Positions 10,483 to 40,908 are shown, counted from the first letter of the stretch. The stretch is DNA of 64,000 nt from a virus (IMGVR_UViG_3300048854_000081:32001-96000), one strand, 5' to 3'. The notes: generated from the letters alone by a model not told the origin. Numbers and translations are program-made.

Positions 10483-10535
10483 TTAAGCTACCGTTCAGGT
10501 TAGGTCTGGTAAAATAGGGTGGAGGATGGAGAAGC
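10483..10535 (+). promoter_or_regulatory. TTCAG-box/TAAAAT/GGATGG element, copy A
   Basis: ttaag-N6-ttcag-N11-taaaat-agggtggaggatggagaagc. Confidence 0.7.
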
Positions 10536-10647
10536 TGGTAGGTAATCTCTCTGTTGCAATGTATTTCAATCTGTTGTACTTTGCATTGCAAAGATTCGCT
10601 ATAGCGAATATACTGTTAGTAACTGGACTTTCTATAGGAGACATGAC

Positions 10648-10860
10648 ATGGCTACTCCTTCACCTGATGACTTACATATCGCTGCACAATGGCTTGACAT
10701 CTATGAGGGTGCTGAAGATGCTGAAGATGCTGAGGCGTGTAAGCGTGTCGCCAAGTGGTTGATAGAGCAATCGAAGGCTGCTGAGTTGAGGCAGATATGT
10801 CGTGATGCTGGTGTCTCTGTAGCGCATGCTAAGAGAGTCATGAAACAGAAGGGTCTATAA
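10648..10860 (+). CDS. Hypothetical protein
   Basis: AGGAG RBS; first gene of rightward region. Confidence 0.7.
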   Translation: MATPSPDDLHIAAQWLDIYEGAEDAEDAEACKRVAKWLIEQSKAAELRQICRDAGVSVAHAKRVMKQKGL

Positions 10861-11054
10861 TGGACTTCCATGAGCGCAAGGCGGAACGGAAGCTTCATTA
10901 TGAAACCTATATCAAGGGATGGAAGCTGAAGGATTGTGTTGCATGTAATGGCTCAGGTCGGTATGATATTGGAAGATCACCTAAGTGTGGATCATGTGGT
11001 GGAACAGGTAAGGTGAAATATAAACCTTATCCATTAACAAACCTTTCAGCTTAG
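10860..11054 (+). CDS. Small DnaJ-type zinc-finger protein
   Basis: CVACNGSG and CGSCGGTG (CxxCxGxG x2). Confidence 0.75.
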   Translation: MDFHERKAERKLHYETYIKGWKLKDCVACNGSGRYDIGRSPKCGSCGGTGKVKYKPYPLTNLSA

Positions 11055-11073
11055 TTACGTATAATAGGTAACC

Positions 11074-11625
11074 ATGAACACAGACATTCAGACGCGTATC
11101 CGTAGCGACCTTGAAGCATGTATGATCAAGGCTCGTCGTATCTTCCCCGAGACGGTTAACATGTTCACGGGTGAAGTCCGTATGATCCGTAGTTCCCGTA
11201 CGTTGGGGACATGTAACAATGACTTCCTGAGTCGAATGAACTTCAAGTTCAATATCGATTTTGCTGAGCAGGACTATGACACCCTGCTTAATGACACGAT
11301 CCCTCATGAAGTAGCCCATGCTGTTGTGTTCCAGCTTCAGCGTCTTGGTAAGCTTCCCCGTAATATCCGCGTGCATGGTAAGGAATGGCGTAGGGTGGCT
11401 ACCATCCTTGGCTGTCGTCCACGTGCCACGACGAATACGTGTGCAGTCCTGAAGGTAAAGAAGACCATCCGTCGCTTTGAGTATCGTATGGGTGATGGTA
11501 ATATCATGATGTTGAGTGCTACGGTGCATAACCGGATTCAGAGTGGTTGGCATTCGTATCACTGTAAGACAACCAAACAGCCCTTGCGTCGGGACTCATT
11601 CACTGGTAACATTCAAGTTCGATAA
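11074..11625 (+). CDS. SprT-like zinc metalloprotease
   Basis: DTIPHEVAH (HExxH) and HGKEW motif. Confidence 0.85.
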   Translation: MNTDIQTRIRSDLEACMIKARRIFPETVNMFTGEVRMIRSSRTLGTCNNDFLSRMNFKFNIDFAEQDYDTLLNDTIPHEVAHAVVFQLQRLGKLPRNIRVHGKEWRRVATILGCRPRATTNTCAVLKVKKTIRRFEYRMGDGNIMMLSATVHNRIQSGWHSYHCKTTKQPLRRDSFTGNIQVR

Positions 11626-11842
11626 GGGGGATACAATGTGTCAACCGAATAATGAAATCGATGGCTTCGTGATGTTCTTTGTCTGTGCCATTTTCTTCTG
11701 TGGTGCGATCTTCTGCTACCTTGAACTGAATACCGGTAAGCCTGCCCCCTACAATGTGCGTCGCTGCTGGACTGGCGCTGGCCTATTCTGCATTGGTGTC
11801 CCCGTCGTCAAGATGCTCATCTTCCTCTTCTAAGGATTCCTC

Positions 11843-12295: not shown

Positions 12296-12326
12296 TATTC
12301 ACCTACTCACTCACGGAATATAACTC

Positions 12327-13009: not shown

Positions 13010-13098
13010 GGGTAGGTAGCTTAAGTGAGCGAGTCTCACAGGTAAAGCAGCGGAGTCATGACCGTCAATGTGGGTTCGAATCCCATCCCTGCCCGCCA
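13010..13098 (+). tRNA. Atypical tRNA-like gene (CAU in irregular anticodon loop; hairpin inserted in D-loop)
   Basis: GGGTAGG/CCTGCCC acceptor, GGTTCGAATCC, GCCA end; gtgag-cgagt-ctcac inside D-loop. Confidence 0.65.
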
Positions 13099-15907: not shown

Positions 15908-17341
15908 ATGAATCCGCTTCTATCCGGTATGCAGCACGCAACCAACAAGTCGTTCACCGAAAACGGTGCACTGACCAATGCATCGACTCTCGATGCTTGC
16001 CTTGATTTCTTCAATGTTGGTCCGGTCGCAAAGGCCAAGCCATCCGATGCTGTGAAAGCATTCAAGGTTGCATATTCCACGGATCGTGAAGTCGCTCTGC
16101 GTGTCCTTCAGTGGGTACGTGACATTCGTGGTGGTGCTGGCGCACGTCAGGCTTTCCGTGACTGCTTTGCATGGCTGATGGACTATCATGCAAATGATGC
16201 CATTGCTATCCTCAACAAGACTGCTTTGATCGGTCGTTGGGATGACGTGCTTGTCGCGTTGTTCTCTTCCCATGCATCGGTTCAGCAGCACGCAGTCAAG
16301 TTGATTCGTAATGCTCTTAACGAGCAGAACGGTCTCTGTGCGAAGTGGATGCCACGTAAGGGTCCCATTGCTGGCGCTCTGCGTACTCAGCTTTCCCTTT
16401 CACCGAAGGGCTACCGTAAGCTTATCGTCGATCTGTCCAAGACCGTCGAGCAGCAGATGTGTGCACAGGATTGGGAAGAGATTAACTACTCCCACGTTCC
16501 TTCGGTTGCTTTCTCTCGCTACCGTAAGGCATTCAAGCGTAACGATGAAACTCGTTTCGCAGCGTTTGCCGAAGCCGCAGTGAAGGGTGAAGTGAAGGTC
16601 AATGCTTCGGCTGTCTTCCCTCATGATGTTGTGAAGGGTTTGAATTCTTACAATGCCGCCTACATGGGTCAGGTAGAGCGTAACGCTGTCAATGCACAGT
16701 GGAAGTCGCTTCCTAACTACATGCCGGATGGTGATACGGGTATCGTTGTGGCTGACGTGTCCGGTTCGATGGAGTTCCCAGTTTCGGGTCAGACGACCGC
16801 CATGGATGTGTGTATCGCTCTGGCGATGTACATGGGTGAGCGTGCAGCGGGTCCATTCAAGGATGCATTCATTACCTTCAGCACTGATCCACGTTTGCAG
16901 GTTCTTACGGGTGACGACATCGTTGGCCGTTACACTCAGCTTCAGTCGGCACAGTGGAACATGAGCACTGATCTTCAGAAGGTGTTCCATCTGATTTTGA
17001 ATACGGCAGTTTCGAAGTCGATTGCTCAGGCTGACATGCCGAAGTTCGTCACCATCCTGTCGGACATGGAATTCAATTCATGCATCACTGGTGGTACGAA
17101 TCTGGACGCCATTCGTACTCAGTACAAGATGGCTGGCTATGAAATGCCTAAGATTATCTTCTGGAACCTGAGGGGTCGTCTTGGTAACAATGCGGCGACT
17201 GCGACGGACAAGGATGTAGGCTTGATTTCTGGTTACTCTCCGGCTATCCTTAGCTCGGTGTTCAAGTGCGAAGATTTGATGCCAGTCAATCTTATGCTCA
17301 CGGCTGTCATGGTCGAGCGCTACGATCTGGAACTGGTGTAA
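15908..17341 (+). CDS. TROVE/Ro60-like protein with C-terminal vWA domain (DUF2828-type)
   Basis: N-terminal TENGA...LDFF, RDIRGGAG, GRWDD, CAKWMPR; MIDAS DVSGSM; T in WNMSTD; LSDMEF; FWNL. Confidence 0.85.
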   Translation: MNPLLSGMQHATNKSFTENGALTNASTLDACLDFFNVGPVAKAKPSDAVKAFKVAYSTDREVALRVLQWVRDIRGGAGARQAFRDCFAWLMDYHANDAIAILNKTALIGRWDDVLVALFSSHASVQQHAVKLIRNALNEQNGLCAKWMPRKGPIAGALRTQLSLSPKGYRKLIVDLSKTVEQQMCAQDWEEINYSHVPSVAFSRYRKAFKRNDETRFAAFAEAAVKGEVKVNASAVFPHDVVKGLNSYNAAYMGQVERNAVNAQWKSLPNYMPDGDTGIVVADVSGSMEFPVSGQTTAMDVCIALAMYMGERAAGPFKDAFITFSTDPRLQVLTGDDIVGRYTQLQSAQWNMSTDLQKVFHLILNTAVSKSIAQADMPKFVTILSDMEFNSCITGGTNLDAIRTQYKMAGYEMPKIIFWNLRGRLGNNAATATDKDVGLISGYSPAILSSVFKCEDLMPVNLMLTAVMVERYDLELV

Positions 17342-19341: not shown

Positions 19342-19455
19342 CCTTACGCAAGCGTTAGGACTTCTTTTTCAAACAATGAAGGGAGCCATTAGGCTCCCTT
19401 TTCTATTGGTGAGTACTGTGGGGGATACCCTACCCTTACGCAAGCGTTAGGACTT
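19342..19455. repeat. Two more copies of the 22-bp repeat flanking a terminator hairpin
   Basis: ccttacgcaagcgttaggactt at 19342-19363 and 19434-19455; aagggagcc-atta-ggctccctttt between them. Confidence 0.9.
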
Positions 19456-19890
19456 AATTGGGTCTTCTGCGTATAGGGGTTCTAGGTCTTCGAAGGTGCC
19501 AGCACGATCATAGATCATCGTCCACTCGACGGCTGCATAGATTAGCTCAGTCGGATAGAACTGTCGTGCTGCCTTCGCGATCATGGTACCATAGCCCTTG
19601 CGGCGATGGTCAGGATGGGTGTACACATCCATGGTGAGTATGAATTCACCGTTTAGCAATAGCTGGAACACCATACCCCATGAGAGTACAGTGGGCTCTT
19701 CCAGTCCGTCAGTGATATAGAATACCCTTAGGTCTTTGACCGATGGACTACCCTTTCTCACCCGGTTCAGGATACGGAGCATCCTGCCAGACTTTAGGCC
19801 ACAATTCAAGTCTCTTAACTGTTTCCTAATGTTTCTGTTAAGTGAACTATGTAGTTCAGTAATGACCTCAATTTCACACATCCTTAACAT
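19447..19890 (-). CDS. GNAT-family acetyltransferase
   Basis: VLSWGMV...DVYTHPDHRRKGYGTMI motif A. Confidence 0.85.
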   Translation of the reverse strand: MLRMCEIEVITELHSSLNRNIRKQLRDLNCGLKSGRMLRILNRVRKGSPSVKDLRVFYITDGLEEPTVLSWGMVFQLLLNGEFILTMDVYTHPDHRRKGYGTMIAKAARQFYPTELIYAAVEWTMIYDRAGTFEDLEPLYAEDPIKS

Positions 19891-19952
19891 GTCCCTGTCT
19901 TGGGTCAGTCAAACAAGCATAACCCATTACAAAATAATTGCAACCCCCTCTG

Positions 19953-20005
19953 TTCAGCTCCCGTTCAGGTTGGTTACGTTAAAATAGGGTCGTGGATGGG
20001 AGAGC
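19953..20005 (+). promoter_or_regulatory. TTCAG-box/TAAAAT/GGATGGG element, copy B
   Basis: ttcag-ctcccg-ttcag-N11-taaaat-agggtcgtggatgggagagc. Confidence 0.8.
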
Positions 20006-20860: not shown

Positions 20861-20891
20861 AGCATTAGGGAACCGAAAGGTTCCCTTTTGT

Positions 20892-20940
20892 TTGCATTCT
20901 CTAATCAATGTGCTAAAATAGACTGGCGGATGGGAAAAGC
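20892..20940 (+). promoter_or_regulatory. sigma70-type promoter fused to GGATGGG element, copy C
   Basis: ttgcat-N16-taaaat-agactggcggatgggaaaagc. Confidence 0.8.
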
Positions 20941-20969
20941 TCTTCGCGATCATGCCGGTTCCATTTCTG

Positions 20970-21001
20970 TTCAGGCTAGGTTCAGTTACGTAACCTATAA
21001 T
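20970..21001 (+). promoter_or_regulatory. TTCAG-N6-TTCAG-N10-TATAAT promoter (no -35)
   Basis: Same architecture at 21438-21469 and 22958-22989. Confidence 0.7.
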
Positions 21002-21008
21002 CGTAAGC

Positions 21009-21446
21009 ATGAAAATCTTCCGAGTTGAAACCCCCGATGGTGAAGGTCCGTTCATTGGTGAGCATTCGTTTGATATGCTTGCCACCCATTTGTTTTCATC
21101 CGAAACCCATCCCTCCCCATGGCGTGACGATCTAGAACACATGATAGGTCTAGGTAGGCCGAACAAGTGTGGGTGTGATTCCATCCAGTCACTAAAGGGA
21201 TGGTTCAACGCTATCGAAGTCAATAAGCTAACAGGTGTCAGGCTGGATGATCGCGACGACCGTAACTACCTGTTACGTGCTACTGAAAGAGATTTGGGAC
21301 TGTTCAAGCTTCACGGCTTTGGTATCGCTGTCTATGAGGTAGAAGACGATGAATGCGAATATGGTTTGGGATTGACTCAGCTAGCATTCCCTACCTCTCG
21401 CGCTACCTTGATCGAAACGTTACCGATTGATGTTCTATTCAGCTAG
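21009..21446 (+). CDS. Hypothetical protein, paralog of 18813 (possible ART-like fold)
   Basis: MKIFRVE..GEGPF...CGCDSIQSLKGWF...QLAF. Confidence 0.7.
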   Translation: MKIFRVETPDGEGPFIGEHSFDMLATHLFSSETHPSPWRDDLEHMIGLGRPNKCGCDSIQSLKGWFNAIEVNKLTGVRLDDRDDRNYLLRATERDLGLFKLHGFGIAVYEVEDDECEYGLGLTQLAFPTSRATLIETLPIDVLFS

Positions 21447-21499
21447 TATTCAGATACAACCCTTATAATTCAAATCATCACCTAACGGAATCAAACGTA

Positions 21500-22887: not shown

Positions 22888-23075
22888 TCCCACGGGGTTA
22901 GAGTAGATTTGAGAGAGGGGGCCATTGGCTCCCTTTCTTTTTGTTTCAATGGAATCATTCAGGTTCCGTTCAGTTAGCTACTGTATAATTCTAATCATGG
23001 AAACGGAACAAGCAACGCTTGACACCCCGAACCATTCCGTTATAATACCTACACACCAACCCAAATGGAGCTACC

Positions 23076-24293: not shown

Positions 24294-24324
24294 ATCATTA
24301 GGGAACCTTCGGGTTCCCTTTTGT

Positions 24325-25581: not shown

Positions 25582-25584
25582 CGG

Positions 25585-27280: not shown

Positions 27281-27378
27281 CCATAAAGCCCCATTGCTGG
27301 GGCTTTTCTTTACGTTACGGTAGCTGTTCCCCATCCGCCAATCTATTTTAATATAACCTACCTGAACGTAACCTGAAT
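27278..27378. repeat. 101-bp cassette (terminator + GGATGGG element copy E + TTCAG box), identical to 35714-35814
   Basis: Base-by-base match of the two stretches. Confidence 0.9.
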
Positions 27379-27451
27379 GAGTTTCGTAACAGGGTGTTGC
27401 ATTCCTTACGTAACTAGGTATACTAGCCACACCAACCACGGAGATACGGCG

Positions 27452-27784
27452 ATGGCTTCCAAGATCAAATCCGTTACGTACAATGGTCAGACCTATACGA
27501 AGGATTCCATCAAGGAAAAGCTCACCACGGATAACCGTTGGTTGCAGCGGGCCATCCTCGCTATCTATGCGGGCCAGACCTCACAAGAGCAAAACTCTGG
27601 TGAAACCGTCGAGGATAACGGTATTGGCTTCTCTGGTGCCGATTCTTACGTAATGTCCATTTACGCTAAGATGATCATGAAAGGCCAACCTCTGTACGCT
27701 GGTCAGCTTGCCAAGGCTCGCAAGACCATGCCCAAGTATGCTGGTCAACTTCTCGGGATCATTTCCGAAAAGAGCCACACTTGA
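27452..27784 (+). CDS. Conserved hypothetical phage protein
   Basis: RAILAIYAGQTSQEQ...NGIGFSGAD...KYAGQL. Confidence 0.8.
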   Translation: MASKIKSVTYNGQTYTKDSIKEKLTTDNRWLQRAILAIYAGQTSQEQNSGETVEDNGIGFSGADSYVMSIYAKMIMKGQPLYAGQLAKARKTMPKYAGQLLGIISEKSHT

Positions 27785-27838
27785 CACCTTCCGTAGTTCC
27801 GTTATAATACTCTCACACTCACTCAAACGGATAACATC

Positions 27839-28264
27839 ATGCACCTCACACGTCTGGTCATGCTCGCCGAATGGTTGGAAGCTGGCGCTCCCGAAAAGGA
27901 TAACGTCACTCGTTTCAGCATGACGAACTGGATCGTTCCGCAGAAAAATTCGTGTGGCACGGCATGTTGCATCGCTGGCGCTACCGTGCAGTTTTTCAAC
28001 GATGAAGCTCGCACGTTCAAGAGTGAGCAGGACGTTTATAACGCCTCGCTCAAGGGTGTGCAGGAGTACGCTCGTGGCCTGTTGGACCTCACGAAGGATC
28101 AGGCGAACGACCTGTTCTATGCCAATGAATATTTCATTGTCGAGAATGAGGATGCGCTGTATTACTCCAAAGCGCTGAAGGCCATCACTCCCGCACATGC
28201 TGCCCGCGTGATCCGCAAGTTTATCGCCACGGGTGAAATCGACTACATCGGTTGCGAAGCTTAA
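27839..28264 (+). CDS. Hypothetical protein with CGTACCIAG motif
   Basis: FSMTNW...CGTACCIAGA. Confidence 0.8.
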   Translation: MHLTRLVMLAEWLEAGAPEKDNVTRFSMTNWIVPQKNSCGTACCIAGATVQFFNDEARTFKSEQDVYNASLKGVQEYARGLLDLTKDQANDLFYANEYFIVENEDALYYSKALKAITPAHAARVIRKFIATGEIDYIGCEA

Positions 28265-28349
28265 CCTAACGTAACTAGGAGGGGTTGCATAAGGTAACCC
28301 CTTCCATTAGAATAACCTCACACCAACCAAATCACTCAAAGGAAATCAC

Positions 28350-28571
28350 ATGACCTTCCGTATCCTGTCCGCCGCCCGTTTCGCCAACACCACGAAGATG
28401 ACCGGTCGCACGCCGCTGGAAGTCTCGGCTGTCAGTGGCAAGAACTACAAGACGTTGGACTCCGCGATCCGCTCGGGTCTGCCGCAGATCGTCAGCAAGG
28501 ATGCCCGTCGTGGTGACGTGTTCGTGGTCATCGAAGGTCCGAACGGCCAGCTTGCCCACCGCACCATCTGA
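28350..28571 (+). CDS. Hypothetical protein
   Basis: AAAGGAAA RBS, own promoter. Confidence 0.7.
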   Translation: MTFRILSAARFANTTKMTGRTPLEVSAVSGKNYKTLDSAIRSGLPQIVSKDARRGDVFVVIEGPNGQLAHRTI

Positions 28572-28593
28572 TCCACGTTCTATAGGCAAACCC

Positions 28594-28890
28594 ATGAAAA
28601 AGCATCATTTTACTAGTGGATCAGTAAATGCTTCCACGTATGCAGTAATCGATGGTGTTCCGTATCCTCAACTGGATATGATCATGGGTATTGCCAAAAG
28701 TAAAGGCTACACTGGTAGCGAAAATACTTTAGCTTACCGCATCAAGGGTGGGGCCAAATCATGGGCAGAATTGATCCGCTCGCCACGCAACAATATGAAA
28801 AATGCGATGGTAGATCGTCAGTTAAAAAGGGAACGTGAGAAAGCCGAGATTGCACAAATGATGCGCGATCTTGATGAACGCAAACGGTAA
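28594..28890 (+). CDS. Hypothetical basic protein
   Basis: Start MKKHHF within track ORF 28435..28890. Confidence 0.6.
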   Translation: MKKHHFTSGSVNASTYAVIDGVPYPQLDMIMGIAKSKGYTGSENTLAYRIKGGAKSWAELIRSPRNNMKNAMVDRQLKREREKAEIAQMMRDLDERKR

Positions 28891-28933
28891 TGGGGTTGAC
28901 AATTAAAATCCCTCCACTATAATGTAATTCATC

Positions 28934-29009
28934 GGGTCGATAGCTCAGTTGGCAGAGCACGGGACTTTTAATCCTGCGGTCGCGGGTTCGAATCCCGCTC
29001 GACCCACCA
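28934..29009 (+). tRNA. tRNA-Lys(UUU)
   Basis: GGGTCGA/TCGACCC acceptor, cggga-cttttaa-tcctg, CCA. Confidence 0.93.
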
Positions 29010-29175
29010 GTCTTTGGGGCATGGTTGTAGGGTATGAACAAAAGGCTAGGTTTGCGTACGGAACCTAGTTTCATACCTTGGGCGTTCGATTCCCCACCCT
29101 TTGTTTTCTGTGGTACAATACGATAACGAGCAATCGACCGTGGCGTATCACTGTTTTATAACCTAAGGAGTTATT

Positions 29176-29397
29176 ATGGATCAGGCTTTCATTTTGTTGG
29201 AAGGGTCGCTGAATCATCTGTCTGTCGAGCATGGTGCCAAGGTGGGCGATACGGTGTATCCCGTGAAGGGCTATGATTACGGGCTGGCGCGTGATGATAC
29301 GTATGCCACGGGTGAAGAGTATATCTCGGTCACTCTGGACCAGAATGGTGACTATCCGTATTTCACGGTACCCGTTCGCCTGATCGAGTCGGTTTAA
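29176..29397 (+). CDS. Hypothetical protein
   Basis: AAGGAG RBS; DYGLARDDT...YISVTL. Confidence 0.75.
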   Translation: MDQAFILLEGSLNHLSVEHGAKVGDTVYPVKGYDYGLARDDTYATGEEYISVTLDQNGDYPYFTVPVRLIESV

Positions 29398-29431
29398 AGG
29401 TAGTTGCAATACATTTCAAATCATGTATAAT

Positions 29432-29580
29432 GAAATTGTGGTCAGAGACATCGGGACGACTAACCTCCCAGTGTGTACCACGACCGGCCATCCTGTCGGT
29501 AATAGAAAAGTGGATGCATAGCAGGTCATGATGACAATTCGCTATCAGGATACGGGGACGATAGCCTGCCCCACAGTTTC
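29432..29580 (+). ncRNA. Candidate ~145-nt structured RNA
   Basis: gaaattgtgg / ccacagtttc terminal stem directly after TTGCAA-N16-TATAAT. Confidence 0.5.
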
Positions 29581-29659
29581 GGAAGTGTAGCCCAAAATAC
29601 TAGAGGCGGGGAGCATTAGAGCACCCTTCAGTGTAGGCGCAAACCCTACCACTTCCACC
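29581..29659 (+). tRNA. Aberrant tRNA-like element
   Basis: GGAAGTG/CACTTCC acceptor, gcc/ggc D stem, gtagg-cgcaaac-cctac T arm; non-canonical loops. Confidence 0.55.
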
Positions 29660-29667
29660 CGGTTTAT

Positions 29668-29842
29668 GCAGGTGTACGCGAATGGCGAAGCGGCTGGAAA
29701 GAAACCTAGCGACGGTTAGATAGGCGTCCAGTGTTATATGAGGATATACCGAAGGTTTGCGCAGACCAACGGTGAAACAATAGAGAGTCGTCTCTATCAT
29801 GCTCATGTTTTGTTGGTGGTTCGATTCCATCCTCCTGCGACA
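29668..29842 (+). ncRNA. tRNA-like RNA with ~100-nt structured insertion
   Basis: GCAGGTG/CTCCTGC acceptor, cgc/gcg D arm, ggtgg-ttcgatt-ccatc T arm, internal hairpins. Confidence 0.55.
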
Positions 29843-29861
29843 ATTTACTAAAGGATACATC

Positions 29862-30164
29862 ATGCAATTCAATGTTACCGCCCGCATGTATGAGATAACC
29901 ATCGAAGAAAATGAAATGCTGGCTCTCATTCGTGAGGAAGCCTATGATGGTAAACTCTGCGAGAATACGCTATTCGATAAGCTTAAAAAGGTCGATGGCG
30001 TCTCTAACATTGATTACAATGGTCACTTTGGCTCTGCTATCTTCCTGACCATCGATGTTGACAAGGATGACGGTAGCATTGGTAATCCGATTCGTAACAA
30101 GATCGAAAGTATCATCCGTAAGCACCTTGACCGTGCTGTAGGTTACCAGAACAAGAAACGTTGA
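29862..30164 (+). CDS. Hypothetical protein
   Basis: Start MQFNVT after AAAGGA. Confidence 0.7.
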   Translation: MQFNVTARMYEITIEENEMLALIREEAYDGKLCENTLFDKLKKVDGVSNIDYNGHFGSAIFLTIDVDKDDGSIGNPIRNKIESIIRKHLDRAVGYQNKKR

Positions 30165-30198
30165 CATTGAGCTAAATAACCGTATAATAATTGAATCA

Positions 30199-30275
30199 GG
30201 GCGGTTAGCTCAATTGGTTAGAGCAAGCGACTCATAATCGCTGGGTCGGGGGTTCGAATCCCTCACCGCCCACCA
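30199..30275 (+). tRNA. tRNA with CAU anticodon, most likely tRNA-Ile2
   Basis: GGGCGGT/ACCGCCC; agcga-ctcataa-tcgct arm resembles the proteobacterial Ile2 anticodon arm; CCA. Confidence 0.88.
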
Positions 30276-30325
30276 CCATACCAAACCCGATCAGAAATGG
30301 TCGGGTTTTCTTTTACCTCACGGTG

Positions 30326-30381
30326 TCTCTTCTCCGATCCACGACCCTATTTTAGCATATCCTCTCTGAATGGTAGCTGAA
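30326..30381 (-). promoter_or_regulatory. GGATGGG-type element, copy F
   Basis: Reverse complement: ttcag-N6-ttcag-N11-taaaat-agggtcgtggatcggagaag. Confidence 0.75.
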
Positions 30382-30456
30382 TCGTAACGTTATCCATGGG
30401 GTTGTAATTGTTTTACAACCTAGTAGAATACCTCTACCAACCACGAGGGAAGACCT

Positions 30457-30741
30457 ATGGCACGTCAATACATCAAACGCCGTATCGATATCGGCACCAT
30501 TCGTGGCACGTACAATCGTGCTGGTCTGCGTCCACCGTCGCTCTATAACGATATCGCGAAGATGGTGGAGGGTAGCGCAAAGCGTACCCGTGACCTCGGT
30601 GTGGCTGTCCGCCATGCAGACGCGAAGTTCATTCACGAGGTGGTGACCATGCTACGTGACGACGGCTTCACAGTCAATCGTCGTGCGGTCACAGAAGCGG
30701 AGTCCGACGAATACTGCACAGTGCTGTATTTGTCGTGGTGA
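30457..30741 (+). CDS. Hypothetical protein
   Basis: Own promoter, GAGGGA RBS. Confidence 0.7.
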   Translation: MARQYIKRRIDIGTIRGTYNRAGLRPPSLYNDIAKMVEGSAKRTRDLGVAVRHADAKFIHEVVTMLRDDGFTVNRRAVTEAESDEYCTVLYLSW

Positions 30742-30910
30742 TGTGACGTTTTTGGTCACCTAGAGGTCATAATCTGACGTTAGGTGACCAAATTGTTCCC
30801 AATTAAACTAAACTGCAAAAAGACGCGATTTTCACGTCTGTCTCACTTGTGTAAACGTCATGTCCTTGCTAAAGTGCCTACACCAAAAGGGCAGGGTAGG
30901 TCGTAGGACG

Positions 30911-31567
30911 ATGGCAACGTACATTCGAAGTTTTGAGTTTATTGATCGTGAAATTGATTTCACTGTAAAGGGAACCGGTTGGAGAATGCTGGATACTCCT
31001 ACCTTCGATCCTCTAAATGTTGCCTATGGTGTCGTCCATGACGCTATAGAGCATTACGAAGCTGGTGAGGAAGGCATCGAGAACGAAATGATGGCCTTCG
31101 GTTCGATCTACCACATCCGCGTACAGGGTAAGTGGTGGGACCAGTTCGGTATGAATGTCAACGCTAATAAAATGATGGCGTGGGATATCGCTCGTTTTCT
31201 ACATGAGCTTGACTTTGTTATAGCTCCCTGCCCATCCAAGACCTCCAAAGCACTGAACGATTTTTGCGTTGAAGCTTTTCCGCATTACGTTGCACAGTTA
31301 GCTAAGCACTACAGTGTCGAAGAACATTCCGATCAGATGGTAAGAGCCATGCACGCCTTTCAACAGGCTTGCGCATGGATGTCTCGTGGTTACGCTCGCT
31401 CTCTGAAGCGTTGGCACGGTAACACACCTTCTGCTCTGACTGACCTGTTTAATTCTCTCACGTCGCTCATTGAACGTGTGACAGGTAAACATGGTGATTT
31501 GCTTAAAGTTTCGTTTGATACGAAAAGCCTAGATCACAAGTGTGAACATCTTGTCATAGTCGTGTAA
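30911..31567 (+). CDS. Hypothetical protein (HDxxEH motif)
   Basis: VVHDAIEH...ENEMMAFG. Confidence 0.7.
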   Translation: MATYIRSFEFIDREIDFTVKGTGWRMLDTPTFDPLNVAYGVVHDAIEHYEAGEEGIENEMMAFGSIYHIRVQGKWWDQFGMNVNANKMMAWDIARFLHELDFVIAPCPSKTSKALNDFCVEAFPHYVAQLAKHYSVEEHSDQMVRAMHAFQQACAWMSRGYARSLKRWHGNTPSALTDLFNSLTSLIERVTGKHGDLLKVSFDTKSLDHKCEHLVIVV

Positions 31568-31808
31568 AGAGTGTATCATTGCGTTTACAGAAGGTGTAGA
31601 GAGATTGTTCTGATCCTCACACCTTCTTCACTTCGGTAGACAACTTGTGAAAATTGTGTCTAGAAGATTGCCGTTTTTGTTCATGTTAGGAACCATCGCC
31701 TGAATACGTATGTTTCGGGTGGTTGTTTTCGTTCCTTTTAAAAGTTACCTTGTATCCACCGGAAGCAATCAGGCACCGGTTTTACATACTTTTAATCGGA
31801 GTTACACC

Positions 31809-32264
31809 ATGAACGCAACAGCACAGAAAATCGAAGGCACCCCAGCCGAACTAGCCAATCGCCTCAGCATGAACGGTCATATCCTGACCCAAGCTGACAT
31901 TGGCTTCCTGACCCGCTTGGGTCTCGGTAAGAAGGTTGGAACGGAAAAGTCCGGTTCCGGTCGCGGTGGTAAACCTGCAACCCGTTGGGCGATCAATCCG
32001 CGAGCCACCCTGAAGTTCGATGTGGTCGAGGAAGCCGTCCAGCAGACCTCTGCAATGGTTCAGCAGCCAAAGCAGGCTCGTGGCCGCAATGCTGCCGCGA
32101 ACGATGACCAGAAGCAGTCGGGTGGTATCGCTGGCATCACCAGCAAGAGCGACCTTGCGGAACTGATCGTATCGGCTGTCGCTGCCGTGATGGATCATCG
32201 CGACAAGCAACAGAACGCAAATTCGGCAGATAATGCTGGTGCGTCTGCCTCTGCTCAGGCATAA
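31809..32264 (+). CDS. Hypothetical protein, N-terminal domain paralogous to 22633
   Basis: LSMNG...GRGGKPATRWAI. Confidence 0.75.
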   Translation: MNATAQKIEGTPAELANRLSMNGHILTQADIGFLTRLGLGKKVGTEKSGSGRGGKPATRWAINPRATLKFDVVEEAVQQTSAMVQQPKQARGRNAAANDDQKQSGGIAGITSKSDLAELIVSAVAAVMDHRDKQQNANSADNAGASASAQA

Positions 32265-32432
32265 TCGAGTCGCCTCTTCAGGCAAAACTCAATCGTGGCC
32301 TCCCGAGTAGTTCAGCGTATCAAACCGTTGCTACTCGGTGCCATGGTTGTAATGTATTACAACATACATGAATCCCAATTGAATCGTTTCTAGCTTGGCA
32401 GTTACGAGAGGGGTACAAACGGGAGTAGTTCC

Positions 32433-32654
32433 ATGGGCAGCGTGAAACCTAGCAACGTGATTCCTTTCGATGCTTATGCCGAAGGTTCAAGAGCTTTCCA
32501 TGATGGGAAGACGTGGCATGAAAATCCCTATGCTCACATGGCATGTTCCCCACACGCTTACATGTGGACATGTGGATGGGATGATGCCAGTCTAAACCCT
32601 ACGGTAATCCCTCCTAAGGTGCAGCGTGTACAGCAGTCGCGAACGGTTGGATGA
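32433..32654 (+). CDS. Hypothetical protein
   Basis: AYAEG..AF..G.....NPY...W..GW pattern. Confidence 0.6.
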   Translation: MGSVKPSNVIPFDAYAEGSRAFHDGKTWHENPYAHMACSPHAYMWTCGWDDASLNPTVIPPKVQRVQQSRTVG

Positions 32655-32793
32655 ACTGGGGACGCTCTGGTATGACATCTTTGATCCCGAAGGGAACATG
32701 GTCGCCAGCCTCAAAGACTTCTACGTCGTCGAAACCCTGCTATTTCAACTCAACAGGTCCACCCACTGACTATCTAATCAGTGGGTAGTTGCA

Positions 32794-32847
32794 GCGGCCT
32801 CCATCCTCGTCTCTATTTTAATACATCTACCCTGAACCGTAGCTGAA
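32794..32847 (-). promoter_or_regulatory. GGATGG element, copy G
   Basis: Reverse complement: ttcag-N6-ttcag-N11-taaaat-agagacgaggatggaggccgc. Confidence 0.75.
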
Positions 32848-32924
32848 TGAAGCTTTGCGGGCATTGTTGCATCTGTCGTTAGGTTACGTTATGATACCTC
32901 CACACTAACCAAACGGACCTAGCG

Positions 32925-35716
32925 ATGAATCGTTACGTTGCCATTCCCTCGCGTCATCTGCGCAATACCAAGACGGGTGCCACGGCAAGCCTCTATGGTG
33001 CCCATCCGGCCAAGTCTCCGGGTGATTTTCAGAACTGGCTCGTAGTCACTAACGGTTGGACCATCCACGACCTCAAGGAAAACCGTATCGGTGGTTTCCA
33101 GTCGTGCCCTCCCGGTTCCTCACAGGAACATGCGGAGTCCGTCGCTGCCCACCTCAACGCTCTCACAGGGAATCGTACCCATGGTTAATTTCAACTGGTG
33201 GCTCATTGCCAGCCTCATCGGCTTCTCGGTCAGCTTGTACTACTGGGTATTTCACTGGGTACGGGCGATTTCCATCATCGGTCTTCAGACGAAAAGCACC
33301 ATCGCGTTTCGTCCGTATGCAATCAGTGGTGTTGGTTTGTTCATCTTCGGGTGGCTGTTGTATCATTGCAACTAATGCATTACAATAGTATCTCACAAAG
33401 GATATCTAATGTATTGCATTCGTTATACGGTTGACAAAGAGACGGCCATATGGTGCGACCCCAACATCCGGGGTAACCGTGAACCAATGGAATATCACAT
33501 AAAGGCACATGCTGAACAGGAATGCGAGTTCCTGAATCGTCAGTATTGTGGTGAAGGGTTTCACTTCACTGTTGACATTCATCCTAACGTTACTGTAACC
33601 TAACCGTTCTCATTCGGAGACAACCATGTCCACCAACACGATCCCGAACATCATCAAGTCTGTCGGTAATCTCAATCCCATCGCCCATGAGGTGTGGAAG
33701 GGTCGTGATGCCAAGGTGGAATACATCGTTCGTGGCATCACTGGCATTGACCCCAAGGTGGAGTTCATCGCTACCGATCACGTGGGCTGTCGCCAGTACT
33801 GTGATACCCTTACCGAAGCCCTTGCGTGGCTCGACCTCCCCAAGTACTAAGGGAACTACCATGTTGAAGAAAGAACGTCAGCAATTGGCTAAGGATATTG
33901 TGGCCCTGTGTAACGAGCATGGTTACACGTTCACTATGGACCCTATCTATGTCCATGGCCGGGATGCTGGAATCACCCTGAACATCGATTGTGGCGCGGT
34001 TAAAGCCATGGTCAGGCTCAACCACAGGGAATTCTATAGCGTTAACTGGTACGATGCCAAACGTCAACTATCCTCATGGACCTTTGGTGATGTCAATGCC
34101 TTCCATGGCACCAAGGCTACGTCATTCTGCGCTGGTGGCGACCAACTGTTGACATTCTTCAAGACAACCTTTACCAAGATCAAGAATGGTAAAGCGTTCA
34201 CCTAAGGGTATTGCGTTACCTAACCTATTCCATTAGAATGGCAACATCCTACAGGGGAACAGCCATGACACACCGTGATCGCCACCCATTCCATCGGTCG
34301 CACACTCCTGATAAGAACTACCTGTATTGCACCATTGATGCCCGTAAGGCTCTGGCGCGTGCGGCAGAACTGAAGAAAGCCCGTCGTAAGCCTAAGGCTC
34401 GACTGCTGGCGCTTATCAATCGGATTCGTGGCATAATCTAAGGGTGTTGCATTCCGTAATCCATTGCATTATACTGTCGTCACTCCAAAGGGAACTGACA
34501 TGACCGACCCGAATATTTTCTATGTTGTATCTGCCTCTAGCAAGCGTGGTCTTGAGTCGGATGGCTATATCGATTACGATTCCCATTCGGGCGGTTATCC
34601 ATACCTTGCAAAGACTCTCATGGGTGCATATCGCTATGATACTCAGCAGAAGGCTGTTGATGCCGCTGAAAGGCTGCTCAGGAGCTTTGATAAGGAATAC
34701 AAGAATGTCAACGTTCTGCAAGCCAGACTTGCCACGAGCGTTATGATTCATTTTCCGGACGTTGACACCGATTATGACAAGGGTCTTCGTGACGGCAAGT
34801 TCCGTAATTCGTCGAAGTATCCGAACAATGACGAATACATGAATGGTTATATCGAAGGTATCAAGTCCTCAAAGGGAAACCTGACATGAACGACCGTGAA
34901 ATAATTGACGCACAGGTTAAGTCCATCACCAACGCTCTGGAAGCGTTGGTGCGGGTGAAAGAGGCTTCCAAGCCCTTCGCTGCCCTGTTGCAGGATCACC
35001 ATGATGACAAGGCCGACGATGAACCGTTGTTCGGTGTCAATGGTAAGTATATCACCTATGGTGATCTGCGTGAACTCAAGCGTGCCCTGAAGAAGGTTTC
35101 GTAACAGTTGCATTAGCTATTCAATTGCATTATACTTGCATCACACCAACCAAAGAGGATTACGGCAATGTCCCGTTCGTTTCGTGAAGGTTTCCAGCCC
35201 ATCAAGTCGAAGGCAAACGATCCGCGTCGTGCTTACCAGCATGATGACATGTTCGCTACCAGTGGTAAGCGTGGTGGTGACAAGGATGCGAAGCGTGAGG
35301 CTCGCCGTCAGGAAAAGCGTAACCAAACGCATTTCTACAGCCTGTGAAGGTGTTGACTCGGGTAGAAATCGTGACATGGGTATTCATCATCGTTCTAGCT
35401 GGCGCTATGTTGCTGGCTAGTTCGATATCACTGGGTATTGCATTCCTTACGTAAAGGTGTATACTAGCTACACACCAACCGAAACGAGGGATGACCAATG
35501 TACACTCTCCGCGATGCACTCCGTGAACGTGCCTACCAGAACGCCAAGATGGAAGCGCGTTGGAAGCATGAGAATGCCAAACGTGAAGAAATCGAAACCA
35601 TTCTGAAAGCTAACCCACAGATTGGAATCCTGATGCGCAACGGCAAGAATGTGTACTACACCTATCCCGCTGGTGGCAAGTACAAAGAAGCCAAGCATCC
35701 CGGCAAGCTAATCTAA
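32925..35716 (+). other. Run of small hypothetical early genes (32925-33188, 33181-33375, 33409-33603, 33626-33850, 33861-34205, 34265-34441, 34500-34889, 34886-35104, 35168-35347, 35498-35716)
   Basis: Rightward ORFs with RBSs, several with their own TTGCAT/TATACT promoter. Confidence 0.7.
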
Positions 35717-35814
35717 CCATAAAGCCCCATTGCTGGGGCTTTTCTTTACGTTACGGTAGCTGTTCCCCATCCGCCAATCTATTTTAATATAACCTACCTG
35801 AACGTAACCTGAAT
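35714..35814. repeat. 101-bp cassette containing element copy H, identical to 27278-27378
   Basis: Exact duplicate. Confidence 0.9.
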
Positions 35815-35883
35815 AACATTTCATAACCCTATTGCATTCCTTTTGTAAGAGTGTATACTAGCCTCATACCACAGAGAACGACC

Positions 35884-36084
35884 ATGACCGAAGCTGAGCA
35901 GATTGCATCCACCCTCGTCGAACCTTACAAGGCCGACCTTGCTCCCTATCGTGGTCTGACTCCTACGCTGGACGATGTGCGTAAGTTCGTGGTCCGTTAC
36001 TTCCGTCAGCCCGGTCGAGTCTATCCCGGTCACCTGATGGCAGGTGAGATTGCCAAGGCTCTGTACGCCCTGATCATCGCTTGA
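35884..36084 (+). CDS. Hypothetical protein
   Basis: Start MTEAEQ after promoter. Confidence 0.65.
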   Translation: MTEAEQIASTLVEPYKADLAPYRGLTPTLDDVRKFVVRYFRQPGRVYPGHLMAGEIAKALYALIIA

Positions 36085-36137
36085 CATCCTCTGAGGTTTA
36101 GTTATAATACCTCCACACCACTCATAAGGGATTTGCC

Positions 36138-36539
36138 ATGAAGCTTGTCGCTACCGAAACCGAAATGCTGCAACTGGCCTATGACGTACTGACCACTGGC
36201 CTGCCGAACTTCGTAGGCTACGGTATCGAACTGGATTACAGCCAGCAGGAATATGACAAGGCCAAGCAATCGCTGATCACCAGTGGTTCGACCAAGCCGA
36301 ACGATATCTGCATCGAAGACGTGCAGCGTGAAATGCTCCGCATGGGCTATGGCCTGACGTTCACGGATACGGAACATGAAGATGATGAGCCGGTCACGCT
36401 GACGCTGGAACTGATCAAGAAGAATTGGGATAGCATCCCGTTCAGTCGTATCGAGGCAGTGCTCAAAGAAAATTACGATGCCGATGATGCGGACGTGATC
36501 GCCCAGTCCATGATCTACGGCGAAGTGGTCTACGGTTAA
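36138..36539 (+). CDS. Hypothetical protein
   Basis: C-terminal DADDADVIAQSMIYGEVVYG. Confidence 0.8.
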   Translation: MKLVATETEMLQLAYDVLTTGLPNFVGYGIELDYSQQEYDKAKQSLITSGSTKPNDICIEDVQREMLRMGYGLTFTDTEHEDDEPVTLTLELIKKNWDSIPFSRIEAVLKENYDADDADVIAQSMIYGEVVYG

Positions 36540-36588
36540 CATACAAAACCCTACCTGACAAGGGTGGGGTTTTCTTATGGACGTTACT

Positions 36589-36641
36589 GCTCTCCCATCC
36601 ACAACCCTATTTTAAAGGATACTAGCTGAATAGAACCTGAA
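36589..36641 (-). promoter_or_regulatory. GGATGGG element, copy I
   Basis: Reverse complement: ttcag-N6-ttcag-N11-taaaat-agggttgtggatgggagagc. Confidence 0.8.
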
Positions 36642-36718
36642 CGGTTACAAATCTTAGGTATTGCATTCCATTATGAAACTAGTATACTAGCCACACACCA
36701 ACCAACAGAGACAATACC

Positions 36719-37087
36719 ATGTCCGTTTACAAAAGCGCCATGAAGTACGGTAATCTTGTCAGTGGTATGATGGCTAACAGCCTGCCGAAGCCAGATGCAA
36801 AAGTTGGCGACTGGGCTACCATCATGGGTGGACGTGATCGCCATCCTGCCAAGATCACCGAAATCGTCTATGCCAAGAATGGCAAGATCAAGGGTTACAT
36901 GCTACAGCGCATGTCGTGGAAGATGGACCAGAATAGCGAAGGCTACGGTGTCAAGGGCTGGGAAGACGACTCCAAGCCGCAGGGTGAACCCAGCTTCTAC
37001 GAGGTGATCGTGCGGGGCAAGATGAAGGGTGCAGTACGTGATGCCCTGATCGGCCATGCCAACCCGTTCTATGATCGAACCTTCTAA
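36719..37087 (+). CDS. Hypothetical protein
   Basis: KVGDWAT..GRDRHPA...FYDRTF. Confidence 0.75.
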   Translation: MSVYKSAMKYGNLVSGMMANSLPKPDAKVGDWATIMGGRDRHPAKITEIVYAKNGKIKGYMLQRMSWKMDQNSEGYGVKGWEDDSKPQGEPSFYEVIVRGKMKGAVRDALIGHANPFYDRTF

Positions 37088-37135
37088 ACACAAGGAACCC
37101 ATCCTGTCAAGGGGTGGGTTTCATTTTACATGAAT

Positions 37136-37190
37136 GCTGTTACCCATCCGCCAGTCTATTTTAATATAACCAAGCTGAACACACGCTGAA
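37136..37190 (-). promoter_or_regulatory. GGATGGG element, copy J
   Basis: Reverse complement: ttcag-N6-ttcag-N11-taaaat-agactggcggatgggtaacagc. Confidence 0.8.
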
Positions 37191-37264
37191 TAGATTACCT
37201 AACAGAGTGTTGCATTCCTTACGTAACTAGGTATACTAGCCACACACCAACCAAAGGATATGTC

Positions 37265-37687
37265 ATGAACGATCTGAATCACTCTGTCGAGCCGAAGAAC
37301 TTCCCCGCGTTCGTGGGCATGGTCCGCAAGTTGGGTGAAGATAAGGATGTCGCTACGGAACTGCTGTGGCACATCGTCAACGAGCGTCCTGAACTGGCTC
37401 TCGCCCTGTTCAACGATATGAATACCCCTGTTGTGGTCCATACTGTCCACGTTGGCTGTCCGCTGTCTCCGTCTGCCAAGGATAAGGATGAGGTTCGCCT
37501 TGCTCCCGGTGTGATTTGGGCTGGGGATAAGTCAACCATCAGCGTCTTCAATTATCGTGCCATCCGCGACATTCACACGGGTGGTGGTCAGAGCCCGCGC
37601 ATCGCTGCCATCAAGCGTTTGCGTGAGCTTACCAGCCTTGGACTCAAGGAAGCCAAGGATACGTGCGATCTGTGGTTCATGTGGTAA
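37265..37687 (+). CDS. Protein with C-terminal ribosomal protein bL12 (L7/L12) CTD-like motif
   Basis: RIAAIKRLRELTSLGLKEAKDTCD versus canonical bL12 KVxVIKxVRxxTGLGLKEAKDLVE. Confidence 0.8.
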   Translation: MNDLNHSVEPKNFPAFVGMVRKLGEDKDVATELLWHIVNERPELALALFNDMNTPVVVHTVHVGCPLSPSAKDKDEVRLAPGVIWAGDKSTISVFNYRAIRDIHTGGGQSPRIAAIKRLRELTSLGLKEAKDTCDLWFMW

Positions 37688-37750
37688 GGGGTTGCATTCC
37701 CTTACGTAATCTGTATACTAACCCCACACTAACCCGCTAAGGATACTGTC

Positions 37751-40640
37751 GTGATTCCTCTGAACGCCAAGAACATCGCCGCTCTCAACTTCTGCGAGAA
37801 CCTTGCCAATGGTAACCGTGGAGTCAAGGCATTCCTTGTCGCTAACATGACGGGTTGCACGTGCTGTCGCGATGAGAACTTCTACAGTGGTCCGTATCGC
37901 ACCAAGGAAGAGGCGGAAGCCGTGATGGTAGACCACCGTAAGCGTTCCTTGCTGGCTTCCCAGTTCGCTCGCGAAGGCAGGTATCACATTACCGAATGCC
38001 ATGTGCTGGAATATGAGAACTTGCTTGTGATCGACGGCGAGACTGTCAACCGTGGCGGTTGGAATCAGCACAATCTCGATATCGGTTACACCCCCTAACC
38101 AAGGGTGTTGACAACCTCATAGGTTCCGTTATAATACCTCCACACCACACGGAAACGACCATGAAAACTCTGACCGGCCAGATTGTTGACTTCGTTGCCA
38201 CCGCAAAGGCCAATGGTGCCTGCACTGTCTACGCCAAGCTGCCCCGCTATCATGGACTGGTCGCGAACAACAAGGTCGTTCAGATTCGTAACAAGCGTGC
38301 ATACGCTGAGTATGTGGACGAACTGGGTAACATCGTGGTCCTCTGCAATGACCTGATCGTTCGCCAGTTCACCCATGCGGAATACGATGATGTGATCCTC
38401 GGTAAGAATGATCGCTATCACGTCATCATGCGCTTTGACAAGAATCAGGGCGTGCGTGCTGGGACACATGCCTATCTGGATGTCAAGGGTCGGATGCAGT
38501 GGTCCAAGGCCACGGCTACCAAGCATCTGAACGATGTCAAGAACGACGTTGGCTACAACAGCCATTACGATCACTTCGCACTGGAACTGGCATGAACGAG
38601 CTTATCCGTGCCATGGAACAAATCGAACGCCTCTCACGGGAGGCTGATCCCAAGCTGGTCGATGTCCCTGCGATGTTGGGTGATATCGCACGCAAAGCAT
38701 TGGAAAATGTCAAGGGGTTGCATTCCGTTACGTAACCTGTATACTACACCCATACTAACCAACGGCGAACTGCTATGAACCTCGTGATCACTTCTCTCCG
38801 TCAGCGTGTTGAGTCCGAGTCCTACTCCCTGTTCTTCCCGTTGGTGGAACATCCGGGTGCAGGCTGGGCACCACCGTGTGACAAGGATGGGAATGTCCTC
38901 CCCGATGAGTTCGCATCGCTGGCGCAGCGTCAGGCCGAAGTGGCTAAGCATCTTGCCGATCCCATCTATGGCAAGCCCTACGTCCAGACCTTCTATAACA
39001 GCTACGTGGAAGCTGCTGTAGGCCGTTGTGAGTGCGGTGGCACAGTCCAGCTTGATGACGGACTGGAAAACTTCTGCGATGAGTGTGGTGCGTGCTACAA
39101 CATGGCTGGGCAGCGTGTCCATCCTGAACTGGCCGAAGGGAACGACCTCTACTAAGGGGTTGCATTCCATTACAAAACCTGTATACTAGCCACACACCAC
39201 AACGGAACTGATGCCATGACCACTGTTACCGATTTCGAAACCCTCATTGGCTTGCGCGAGTATGCTGATGACCGTGCGGAATACTGGTCCATGGAACTGA
39301 ACAAGTTCCCTAAGGGTGAAATGGGTCTGACTCCCGATGCTGTCAAGGCATCCCCGGAGTTCAAGATGGCTAAGAGTAACTACGATGAGGCATTCTTTAG
39401 CCTCCGTCGTTACAATGCCCTGCTCCGCACCCACTACCCGAAACAGTTCGCCAAGCATACCAAAGCTGCCATTGCAGCACGGAGAGCCAAAGCATGAACG
39501 ATAACCTTCCCCTTGAAATCAAGTGGCGTGGTGCGACCTATGTGATGCTGTCCGTTCAAGACGGCTACGTTACGTGGCGTAATACCTTCTCCGGCTACAG
39601 TGAGTCATGCTCTGTCGAAAGCTGGAAAGAGGGTAAGCCGTACGAACGCCAGATGGGTGCTTACTAACATGGTAGAACCGCGCCAGTTCACTGTAGGAGC
39701 GCATTCCATACGTAACCCATGGGAACGTAGCCTCAATGACACCGCTGAGCGTGTAGAGGCTTATGGGGGCTTACACCCTGTGTTGTACGATACCCTGACA
39801 GGAACGTACTTCACCCGCATCGTGCACACGTTCAGTCAGCACGCAATCCTCTACCATCTGCACCTGAAGTAGTCAAGGGTTGCATTTCCTTAGGAGATAG
39901 GTATACTAACCTCACTCACCAAGGAACTGCCATGAACGACATCAAAGAATTCGCAACCGTCGAAGATGCATTCGAATGGATGTATGAGGCTGTTGATGAT
40001 GGGTGTATCGATAACGAACGCTTTGCCTACTCCGATGATGAGGATGCGGTCAACCGTTTCATTGAGTTGACTGATCAAGGCTGCTGTGGTTGCTTCGATT
40101 CCCTCGTAACCATCCTCGGTCGTGAGGCACACATCGGTTGCAACTATGGACATTGATCCCATGACTGGCAGGCAGCATGACTTCATTCTCATGCTGCTGA
40201 TCAAAGCCCTACTGTTATCTAACCCTACCGCCGTACATGAGCGTACAGGACCGTCGTGGGGTTACATCTTCGATAAGGTAGGCAACGGTAGACCCCATGG
40301 CTATCCCACCATTGAAGAGTGGATGAATAGCCTTGACAAGTGGGCAGCTAGCAGGGCTATCACTGTCCTCAAGAGTCTACAACACTAAGGGGGTTGCATT
40401 CCCTTACGTAACCTGTATACTAGACTCATCCTAACGAAACGGACAACGACCATGACCTCTGCCAACTATGCCCATATCTCCCTCAACGACTGGAATGCTA
40501 TGTCGCCGGTCGAGAAGGCCAAGGCTAAGGAATACGTCAATGCACGCTGCGACCAGATGCAGACCCTTACCCGTGAGGCACGCATGGCTGAGCGCAAGGC
40601 TCACCGTATCGCTACCTACATCAATGAGGTTAACTACTAA
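37751..40640 (+). other. Run of small hypothetical early genes (37751-38098, 38161-38595, 38775-39155 with Zn ribbon, 39216-39497, 39932-40156, 40146-40388, 40452-40640)
   Basis: Most are preceded by TTGCAT-N16-TATACT and an RBS. Confidence 0.7.
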
Positions 40641-40856
40641 TGAATGCCTGCCCTAACCTCATCCCTATCATGAGCCGTGACCTCACCTATGTAGCAGGCG
40701 AGCTATCATGTGGTGGTGTATACAATGGTATGGTCATGCGCTGCGCACAGTGCAGTGAGTATGCCTGCCTTGAGTATGATGTGGATAGTGATAGCTAACA
40801 GTAGGTAACACAGTAAGCTAAGCATGTCAACACTATGCTTAGCGTGTACACGCACT

Positions 40857-40908
40857 GCTCCCCATCCTCGTCCCTATCTTACCATAGGTTAGCTGTATGT
40901 AACCTGAA
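40857..40908 (-). promoter_or_regulatory. GGATGGG element, copy K (degenerate)
   Basis: Reverse complement: ttcag-N6-tacag-N11-taagat-agggacgaggatggggagc. Confidence 0.7.

Follow-up and report, generated by a model that had tools for sequence, protein, structure and literature searches.

We wondered why a giant phage would repeat one short promoter-like sequence, a TAAAAT hexamer followed by a G-rich block, eleven times among its densely packed small genes, with most of the copies pointing against those genes. The repeat lies in a 64,000-nucleotide (nt) stretch of viral DNA, hereafter the window, which comprises bases 32001-96000 of a single virus contig of 350,036 bp (IMGVR_UViG_3300048854_000081). 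On balance, we read the repeat as the polymerase-contacted core of a clade-specific family of early promoters for the host sigma-70 polymerase, a modular family most of whose members form the reverse arm of a cassette.

A preliminary description of the window had listed eleven copies and had proposed a genome-wide matrix scan as a check. All eleven were found in their places, and a position matrix built from them and run on the 350,036 bp returned exactly these 11, confined to a compositional island at window positions 10.4-41 kb. They scored 33-41 bits, the next site 14, and a looser pattern applied genome-wide yielded none beyond the 11. On the plus strand, the -10 hexamer TAAAAT starts at 10510, 19980, 20914 and 24347; on the minus strand, it starts at 27350, 30354, 32820, 35786, 36614, 37163 and 40881. 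Two copies deviate, with GGATCGG as the block at 30354 and TAAGAT as the hexamer at 40881. The sequences described upstream were also present in the numbers given: TTCAG-N6-TTCAG-N11 precedes nine copies (one repeat is degenerate in copies 10510 and 40881) and TTGCAW-N16 the other two.

The element is shared with other giant phages. Pattern scans of viral contigs identified several related phages of 300-350 kb, and looser matching identified XacN1, Xoo-sp13 and RAS14. About 79 copies are present across nine related giant phages, the isolates XacN1 and Xoo-sp13 included. Neither the G-rich block nor the repeat was found in PA5oct, the one related giant phage with RNA-seq. Clade-wide, the core consists of TAAAAT, an invariant G two bases later and a block that reads GG-N-Y-GG(G)-RR, the near-invariance of G at fixed positions being partly imposed by the search criteria. 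At one block position outside these criteria, a pyrimidine is found in 71 of 82 copies. The central GGA of the present genome is replaced in relatives by variants such as GGCTGG, GGTCGG, GGCCGG and GGTTGG, and in every genome the core stands behind either a -35 hexamer at 16-18 nt or a repeat resembling a PhoP box. In XacN1, every copy lies within the 65,875-bp terminal repeat (PMC5852040). Comparison of Xoo-sp13 with XacN1 over 1-70 kb revealed a single C-to-A change (GGCCGG to GGACGG) in most Xoo-sp13 copies, and the spacer between G-block and hairpin, like the flanks, could not be aligned. The shared change together with the unalignable spacer argues for concerted evolution of the core and an unconstrained RNA body. 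Judged from these comparisons, conservation is confined to the predicted polymerase footprint, about -12 to +14.

The idea that one downstream block sits behind two promoter types holds here and extends to the relatives, where either TTGACA-N17 or the TTCAG repeat is found upstream, and the promoter-like nature of the element is supported. Sigma-70 geometry is present as TTGCAW-N16-TAAAAT in two copies of the window and as TTGACA-N17-TAAAAT in the related genome G001, in XacN1 and in Xoo-sp13. In the remaining nine copies of the window, the direct repeat takes the place of the -35, 11 nt from the -10. The same repeat also precedes plain TATAAT promoters that lack a G-block and drive plus-strand genes (20969-21002, 21437-21470 and 22957-22990, plus strand) and is therefore a separate upstream module. 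A further class of plus-strand promoters, with perfect TTGACA-N16-TATAAT, occurs eleven times in the island (13754-38135) and eight more times across the other 320 kb; some of these directly drive tRNA-Pro, tRNA-Lys and tRNA-Met.

With its preceding purine, the repeat reads RTTCAG-N5-RTTCAG, which is the published PhoP-box consensus of Pseudomonas aeruginosa (GTTCAG-N5-RTTCAG; PMC3156716). Full matches number 11 within the island and one in the rest of the genome; a hand estimate puts the chance expectation at about 0.17. Eight of the 11 elements have a full match. The box at 40893-40909 contains a TACAG half, copy 10510 has a degenerate first repeat, and elements 20914 and 24347 carry a -35 hexamer instead of the box. 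A search of the phage for an OmpR-family regulator with a Trans_reg_C DNA-binding domain found none, which makes a host regulator the likeliest reader of the repeat. We conclude from the consensus match that the repeat is probably bound by a host response regulator.

All seven minus-strand copies turned out to belong to a single bidirectional cassette, repeated and about 175 bp long, in which they form the reverse arm. Along the plus strand, a terminator comes first, then G-block and -10 in reverse complement, the PhoP-like box, a gap, the promoter TTGCAT-N17-TATACT, a CA-rich leader and an ATG. The gap from the box to the forward -35 measures 17-19 nt in seven of seven cassettes. In the coordinates of the reverse promoter the centre of the box falls near -32, in those of the forward promoter near -62. 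The leftmost cassette (27285-27424) comprises a plus-strand terminator (27285-27306), the minus-strand reverse arm (27325-27378, with G-block, -10 and PhoP-like box), an 18-nt gap and the forward promoter (27397-27424) with its CA-rich leader. The next, at 30283-30429, follows a tRNA-Met gene and has its terminator at 30283-30308, its reverse arm, the one with GGATCGG, at 30329-30382 (minus) and its forward promoter at 30402-30429. Farther right, the cassette at 32759-32895 combines a hairpin (32759-32788) with a minus-strand reverse arm (32795-32848) and a forward promoter (32867-32895). Three more lie at 35721-35859 (terminator 35721-35742, minus-strand reverse arm 35761-35814, forward promoter 35832-35859), 36545-36688 (36545-36573, 36589-36642 and 36661-36688, respectively) and 37094-37237 (37094-37122, 37138-37191 and 37210-37237). 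The last (40817-40956) marks the right edge of the island, with a hairpin at 40817-40843, a minus-strand reverse arm containing TAAGAT and TACAG at 40856-40909 and a forward promoter at 40928-40956. The cassettes at 27281-27400 and 35717-35836 are nearly identical across more than 100 nt, terminator and spacer included, which indicates recent duplication or gene conversion.

The forward promoters belong to a second plus-strand family, TTGCAT-N17-TATACT, with at least 14 copies at window positions 27397-40421 and a CA-rich leader (ACACCAACCA type) ahead of the Shine-Dalgarno sequence. Only seven of these at least 14 promoters have a reverse arm. The antisense copies of XacN1 are likewise arranged back-to-back with a gene promoter. 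Boxes were also found closer to a promoter: a reversed PhoP-like box without a G-block arm (24830-24846, minus) precedes a forward promoter by 8 nt, and an equal distance separates the box at 19952 from a minus-strand promoter. These 8-nt gaps and the 18-nt gap of the cassette are one helical turn apart.

Genes of the island lie on the plus strand throughout except for one small minus-strand gene (19447-19890), as a codon model trained on long open reading frames (ORFs) of the same genome, PHROG matches and tRNAs agree. The seven minus-strand copies are therefore antisense and, as described before, run into hairpins. These hairpins are the intrinsic terminators of plus-strand genes, with the stronger T-run on the plus side. 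In 31 element-hairpin pairs from 8 genomes, the GC core of the hairpin begins at a median distance of 44 nt from the T of TAAAAT (interquartile range 40-45.5), A occupies on average 6.4 of 10 positions before the hairpin and T on average 4.7 of 10 after it. Distances and flanking bases together predict RNAs of about 55-62 nt that would end in a two-way terminator, within the 50-70 nt proposed earlier. Six of the seven reverse arms in the window conform to this prediction; the RNA of the arm at 32795-32848 would be slightly shorter, its hairpin lying 32 nt from the -10. No terminator separates a sense copy from the next promoter, which follows 50-95 nt further on.

How might such a core work? 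We propose that it comprises the -10 TAAAAT, a discriminator with the invariant G and the G-rich initially transcribed block GG-N-Y-GG, and that its upstream input would come from an ordinary -35 hexamer in some copies and, in others, from RTTCAG-N5-RTTCAG at a distance of 11 nt from the -10. The module would adjoin intrinsic terminators between genes of the early/tRNA block in either orientation, and its reverse arms would yield a short non-coding RNA halted in the two-way terminator of the neighbouring gene. The invariant G lies after the -10 at the position that stabilises open complexes via sigma region 1.2. The sole constrained position other than G is the pyrimidine before the invariant GG, at +5/+6 to +6/+7. 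Changes in the initially transcribed sequence can alter the output of a promoter by a factor of more than 10, and pausing during initial transcription and slow escape have been linked to (T/C)G steps near +6 (PMC5961368). By analogy, polymerase may be slow to escape from the present promoters, whose conserved pyrimidine-G step lies at about +6/+7. The core may thus tune initiation itself, and the useful product may be a polymerase stationed next to the terminator and the forward promoter, rather than the RNA, insulating or modulating the adjacent early unit. Alternatively, the short antisense RNA could pair with read-through transcripts only, with the same outcome. In many copies, this insulation or modulation would be under PhoP control. 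That the element acts as a 'parking' promoter, which recruits host polymerase very well, keeps it paused during initial transcription next to the terminator and back-to-back with the promoter of the following gene, and so insulates or tunes the unit through the stationed enzyme and not the RNA, with many copies PhoP-gated, is a tentative extension that we regard as rather unlikely. If it were true, a giant phage would sense host physiology, namely PhoP envelope stress, at its earliest promoters.

The preliminary description had also offered, as one of three competing readings of the copies, polar DNA sites arranged around a central axis. Written along the genes, with S for sense and A for antisense, the order in the window is SSSSAAAAAAA, and the single flip reported is indeed present here. 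The relatives have mixed orders (SSSAASAA, SSAAASAAAAAAA, SSAAA, SAASASSSAAS, SSAAAASAA and SAS), the overall tally being 26 sense and 41 antisense copies, and the known ends of XacN1 do not suit a Chi-like rule. Local cassette structure accounts for the flip: all copies to its right are cassette arms, and the plus-strand copies are of three other kinds. Element 1 (10482-10535; degenerate PhoP-like repeat, TAAAAT at 10510-10515, G-rich block) stands at the head of the plus-strand gene block, in a divergent junction with minus-strand genes. Element 2 (19952-20005; PhoP-like box at 19952-19968, -10 at 19980, G-block) is back-to-back with the promoter of the minus-strand gene 19447-19890, and a perfect TTGACA-N16-TATAAT promoter lies downstream at 20049. 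Elements 3 (20867-20939) and 4 (24300-24372), whose hexamers start at 20914 and 24347, are tandems of a terminator hairpin (20867-20886 and 24300-24319), a promoter (TTGCAT-N16-TAAAAT and TTGCAA-N16-TAAAAT) and the G-block, similar to the PeSL cassettes discussed below; a PhoP-box promoter without G-block follows element 3 at 20969. The single flip is hence a by-product of cassette type and gene direction and not a genome axis; on our reading it reflects the local structure of the cassette, together with a weak trend for which we have no explanation.

This trend is one of several points that weigh against a sigma-70 promoter family of the kind proposed. Sense copies lean to the head of gene blocks and antisense copies lie deeper (Fisher P = 0.023 excluding this genome), for which local architecture offers only a partial account. 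Part of the trend is a matter of definition, since any element in a divergent junction counts as sense, and the trend weakens once the first, trivially sense element of each block is dropped. The -10 was searched for in relatives in two forms only, TAAAAT and TAAGAT, and among 82 copies these account for 77 and five, respectively. Block variants are genome-specific. The uniform -10 and the genome-specific blocks could each be a sign that a dedicated phage factor is involved and not sigma-70 alone. PhoP binding is predicted from a consensus match, and the start sites, the RNA ends and the strength of the promoters are predicted as well. Moreover, purine-rich initial sequences correlate with better productive yield (PMC5961368), so the G-rich block might speed escape rather than slow it.

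We also weighed the idea that the RNA itself is the product. The reverse arms might be multicopy genes for trans-acting small RNAs with Hfq-type architecture, each with a single-stranded, G-rich 5' seed common to all, an A-rich stretch and a hairpin terminator; they would act on host RNAs and be either PhoP-switched or constitutive. AmgR and MgrR are precedents for PhoP-driven antisense or small RNAs, and the constrained length of the predicted RNAs across genomes, the moderately T-rich tail after the hairpin and the clade-wide conservation of the 5' block all fit. Set against this are the sense copies, which have no terminator before the next promoter, and the RNA body, which lacks conservation and is not of the same length in XacN1 and Xoo-sp13. 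With a start 7 nt past the -10, only about 8 conserved nucleotides would be transcribed. A search of the phage for targets of the G-rich 5' end matched solely the opposite strands of the elements themselves, CCATCC sites in this genome fall within coding sequence, and no covariation of a complementary hexamer was found across genomes. GcvB-like pairing with the CA-rich early mRNA leaders was no better than with shuffled seeds (P = 0.75 to 1.0). We consider a small RNA family rather improbable. Far less credible still is the preliminary suggestion that the RNAs are decoys titrating CsrA/RsmA. GGATG does resemble part of the CsrA/RsmE SELEX motif, but the GGA is lost in most relatives and this lack of conservation disfavours a decoy. 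Each RNA would contain one GGA, in contrast to the several, mostly in hairpin loops, of decoys of the CsrB or RsmY/Z type. Nor was a conserved 5' hairpin found: when +1..+7 was paired as well as possible with the 21 nt that follow, the mean stem was 4.37 bp in 19 copies and 4.42 bp in a null of random island sequence (P = 0.62).

Quite unlikely, in our judgment, is a role as DNA, in which transcription from a strong promoter into the G-rich sequence would yield stable RNA-DNA hybrids (R-loops) that prime replication or promote recombination at the terminal repeat, or the elements would guide a translocase centrally. A G-rich non-template strand that begins at the start site, the restriction of the copies to a region that is terminal repeat in XacN1 and a convergent tendency in several genomes fit such a role. 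An R-loop origin sits poorly with the sequence downstream, where a G-rich block, a short spacer and a GC hairpin about 30 nt on are found instead of an AT-rich unwinding element. As for polar sites, orientation is mixed in the genomes G001 and G007, every copy is fused to a -10 in fixed register, needless for a translocase signal, and the outermost XacN1 copies are wrongly oriented for a Chi rule of the Escherichia coli type. G-quadruplex, DnaA box and Chi/KOPS readings were tried as well, and none is conserved across the relatives. A leaderless micro-ORF starting from the ATG in GGATGG was rejected, as the peptides, of 4-79 amino acids, are unrelated and one copy has no ATG.

The window encodes T4-type topoisomerase II subunits, whose nearest isolates by protein are Pseudomonas phages; the nearest isolates for one island gene are the giant Xanthomonas/Stenotrophomonas phages XacN1, Xoo-sp13, CM1 and RAS14. 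The island differs from its surroundings in GC content (0.47-0.50 versus about 0.42 elsewhere) and contains densely packed small genes and six tRNAs, all on the plus strand; PHROG matches within it are to plus-strand ORFs only. It corresponds, at 10400-41000, to the XacN1 region inside the 66-kb terminal repeat and may be a collapsed terminal repeat in the present assembly. At 15908-17341 (plus), it encodes a 477-amino-acid protein with DUF2828 and DUF7788 domains (Ro60/TROVE-like neighbourhood), surrounded by perfect consensus promoters and tRNA-like pieces. Beyond the called tRNAs, tRNA-like T-arm sequences lie at 13010-13094 and at about 29800-29850, one of them with a weak Rfam tRNA match (25 bits). 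An Rfam search matched only tRNAs. Where the orientation of the elements flips, roughly 550 nt free of ORFs lie between a TTGACA-N16-TAAACT promoter and a strong terminator downstream (25583-25608). This segment, 25039-25612, is a candidate large structured non-coding RNA without an Rfam match. In PA5oct, the terminal repeat contains two highly expressed non-coding RNAs (PMC7318152).

The genome paper of XacN1 does not contain the word 'promoter' (PMC5852040), and how giant phages of the XacN1 group are regulated is essentially uncharted. The cassette presented here is real and conserved, and it has apparently not been described before. It is a module recognisable clade-wide, with swappable inputs, one of which resembles the site of a host two-component regulator, and with a transcribed block conserved far past the normal needs of sigma-70; most copies have no gene downstream. 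The module bears on how initially transcribed sequences control promoters in nature, on whether antisense or stationed polymerases insulate dense phage early genes and on whether host envelope-stress signalling enters phage early expression. XacN1 and Xoo-sp13 are culturable isolates that carry it.

Parts of this arrangement have counterparts in known systems. Lambda oop RNA and the convergent promoters of phage 186 oppose an early gene by a short antisense transcript or a convergent promoter, as here. Unlike them, the present unit is multicopy, and its predicted RNA covers only terminator and spacer and not the coding region. T5 N25 and T7 A1 are likewise host sigma-70 promoters with a functional purine- or G-rich transcribed sequence (PMC5961368, PMC12464699), whereas the block studied here is reused many times, often without a gene, and has a conserved pyrimidine-G step. 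PhoP promoters of P. aeruginosa share the direct repeat, the 11-bp periodicity and the replacement of the -35 (PMC3156716). They differ in that the present promoters are phage-borne and that one box is positioned to serve two divergent promoters.

The preliminary description had named PeSL as the nearest analogue. PeSL and PmSL of T4-like phages are, like the present element, short conserved composites of a terminator and an early promoter (PMC2839356, PMC4122927). They too recur among the small ORFan genes of plastic early regions, with copies that have become homogenised within each genome, and in both systems a second version has an activator box in place of the -35, a Mot box there and a PhoP-like box here. 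Elements 3 and 4 (20867-20939 and 24300-24372) show the order that defines PeSL, a stem-loop with a codirectional early promoter directly behind it. In contrast, the seven minus-strand copies face their stem-loop, and copies 10510 and 19980 have no terminator hairpin upstream. Copies directed against the genes make up about 60% clade-wide and 7 of 11 in the window, the conserved part reaches about 14 nt beyond the start site, and the usual form is a bidirectional cassette of fixed geometry sharing one box, the predicted site of a host two-component regulator; PeSL and PmSL differ in each of these respects. Among known systems, PeSL and PmSL come closest to the cassette, yet its bidirectional layout, conserved transcribed block and predicted host-regulator box set it apart.

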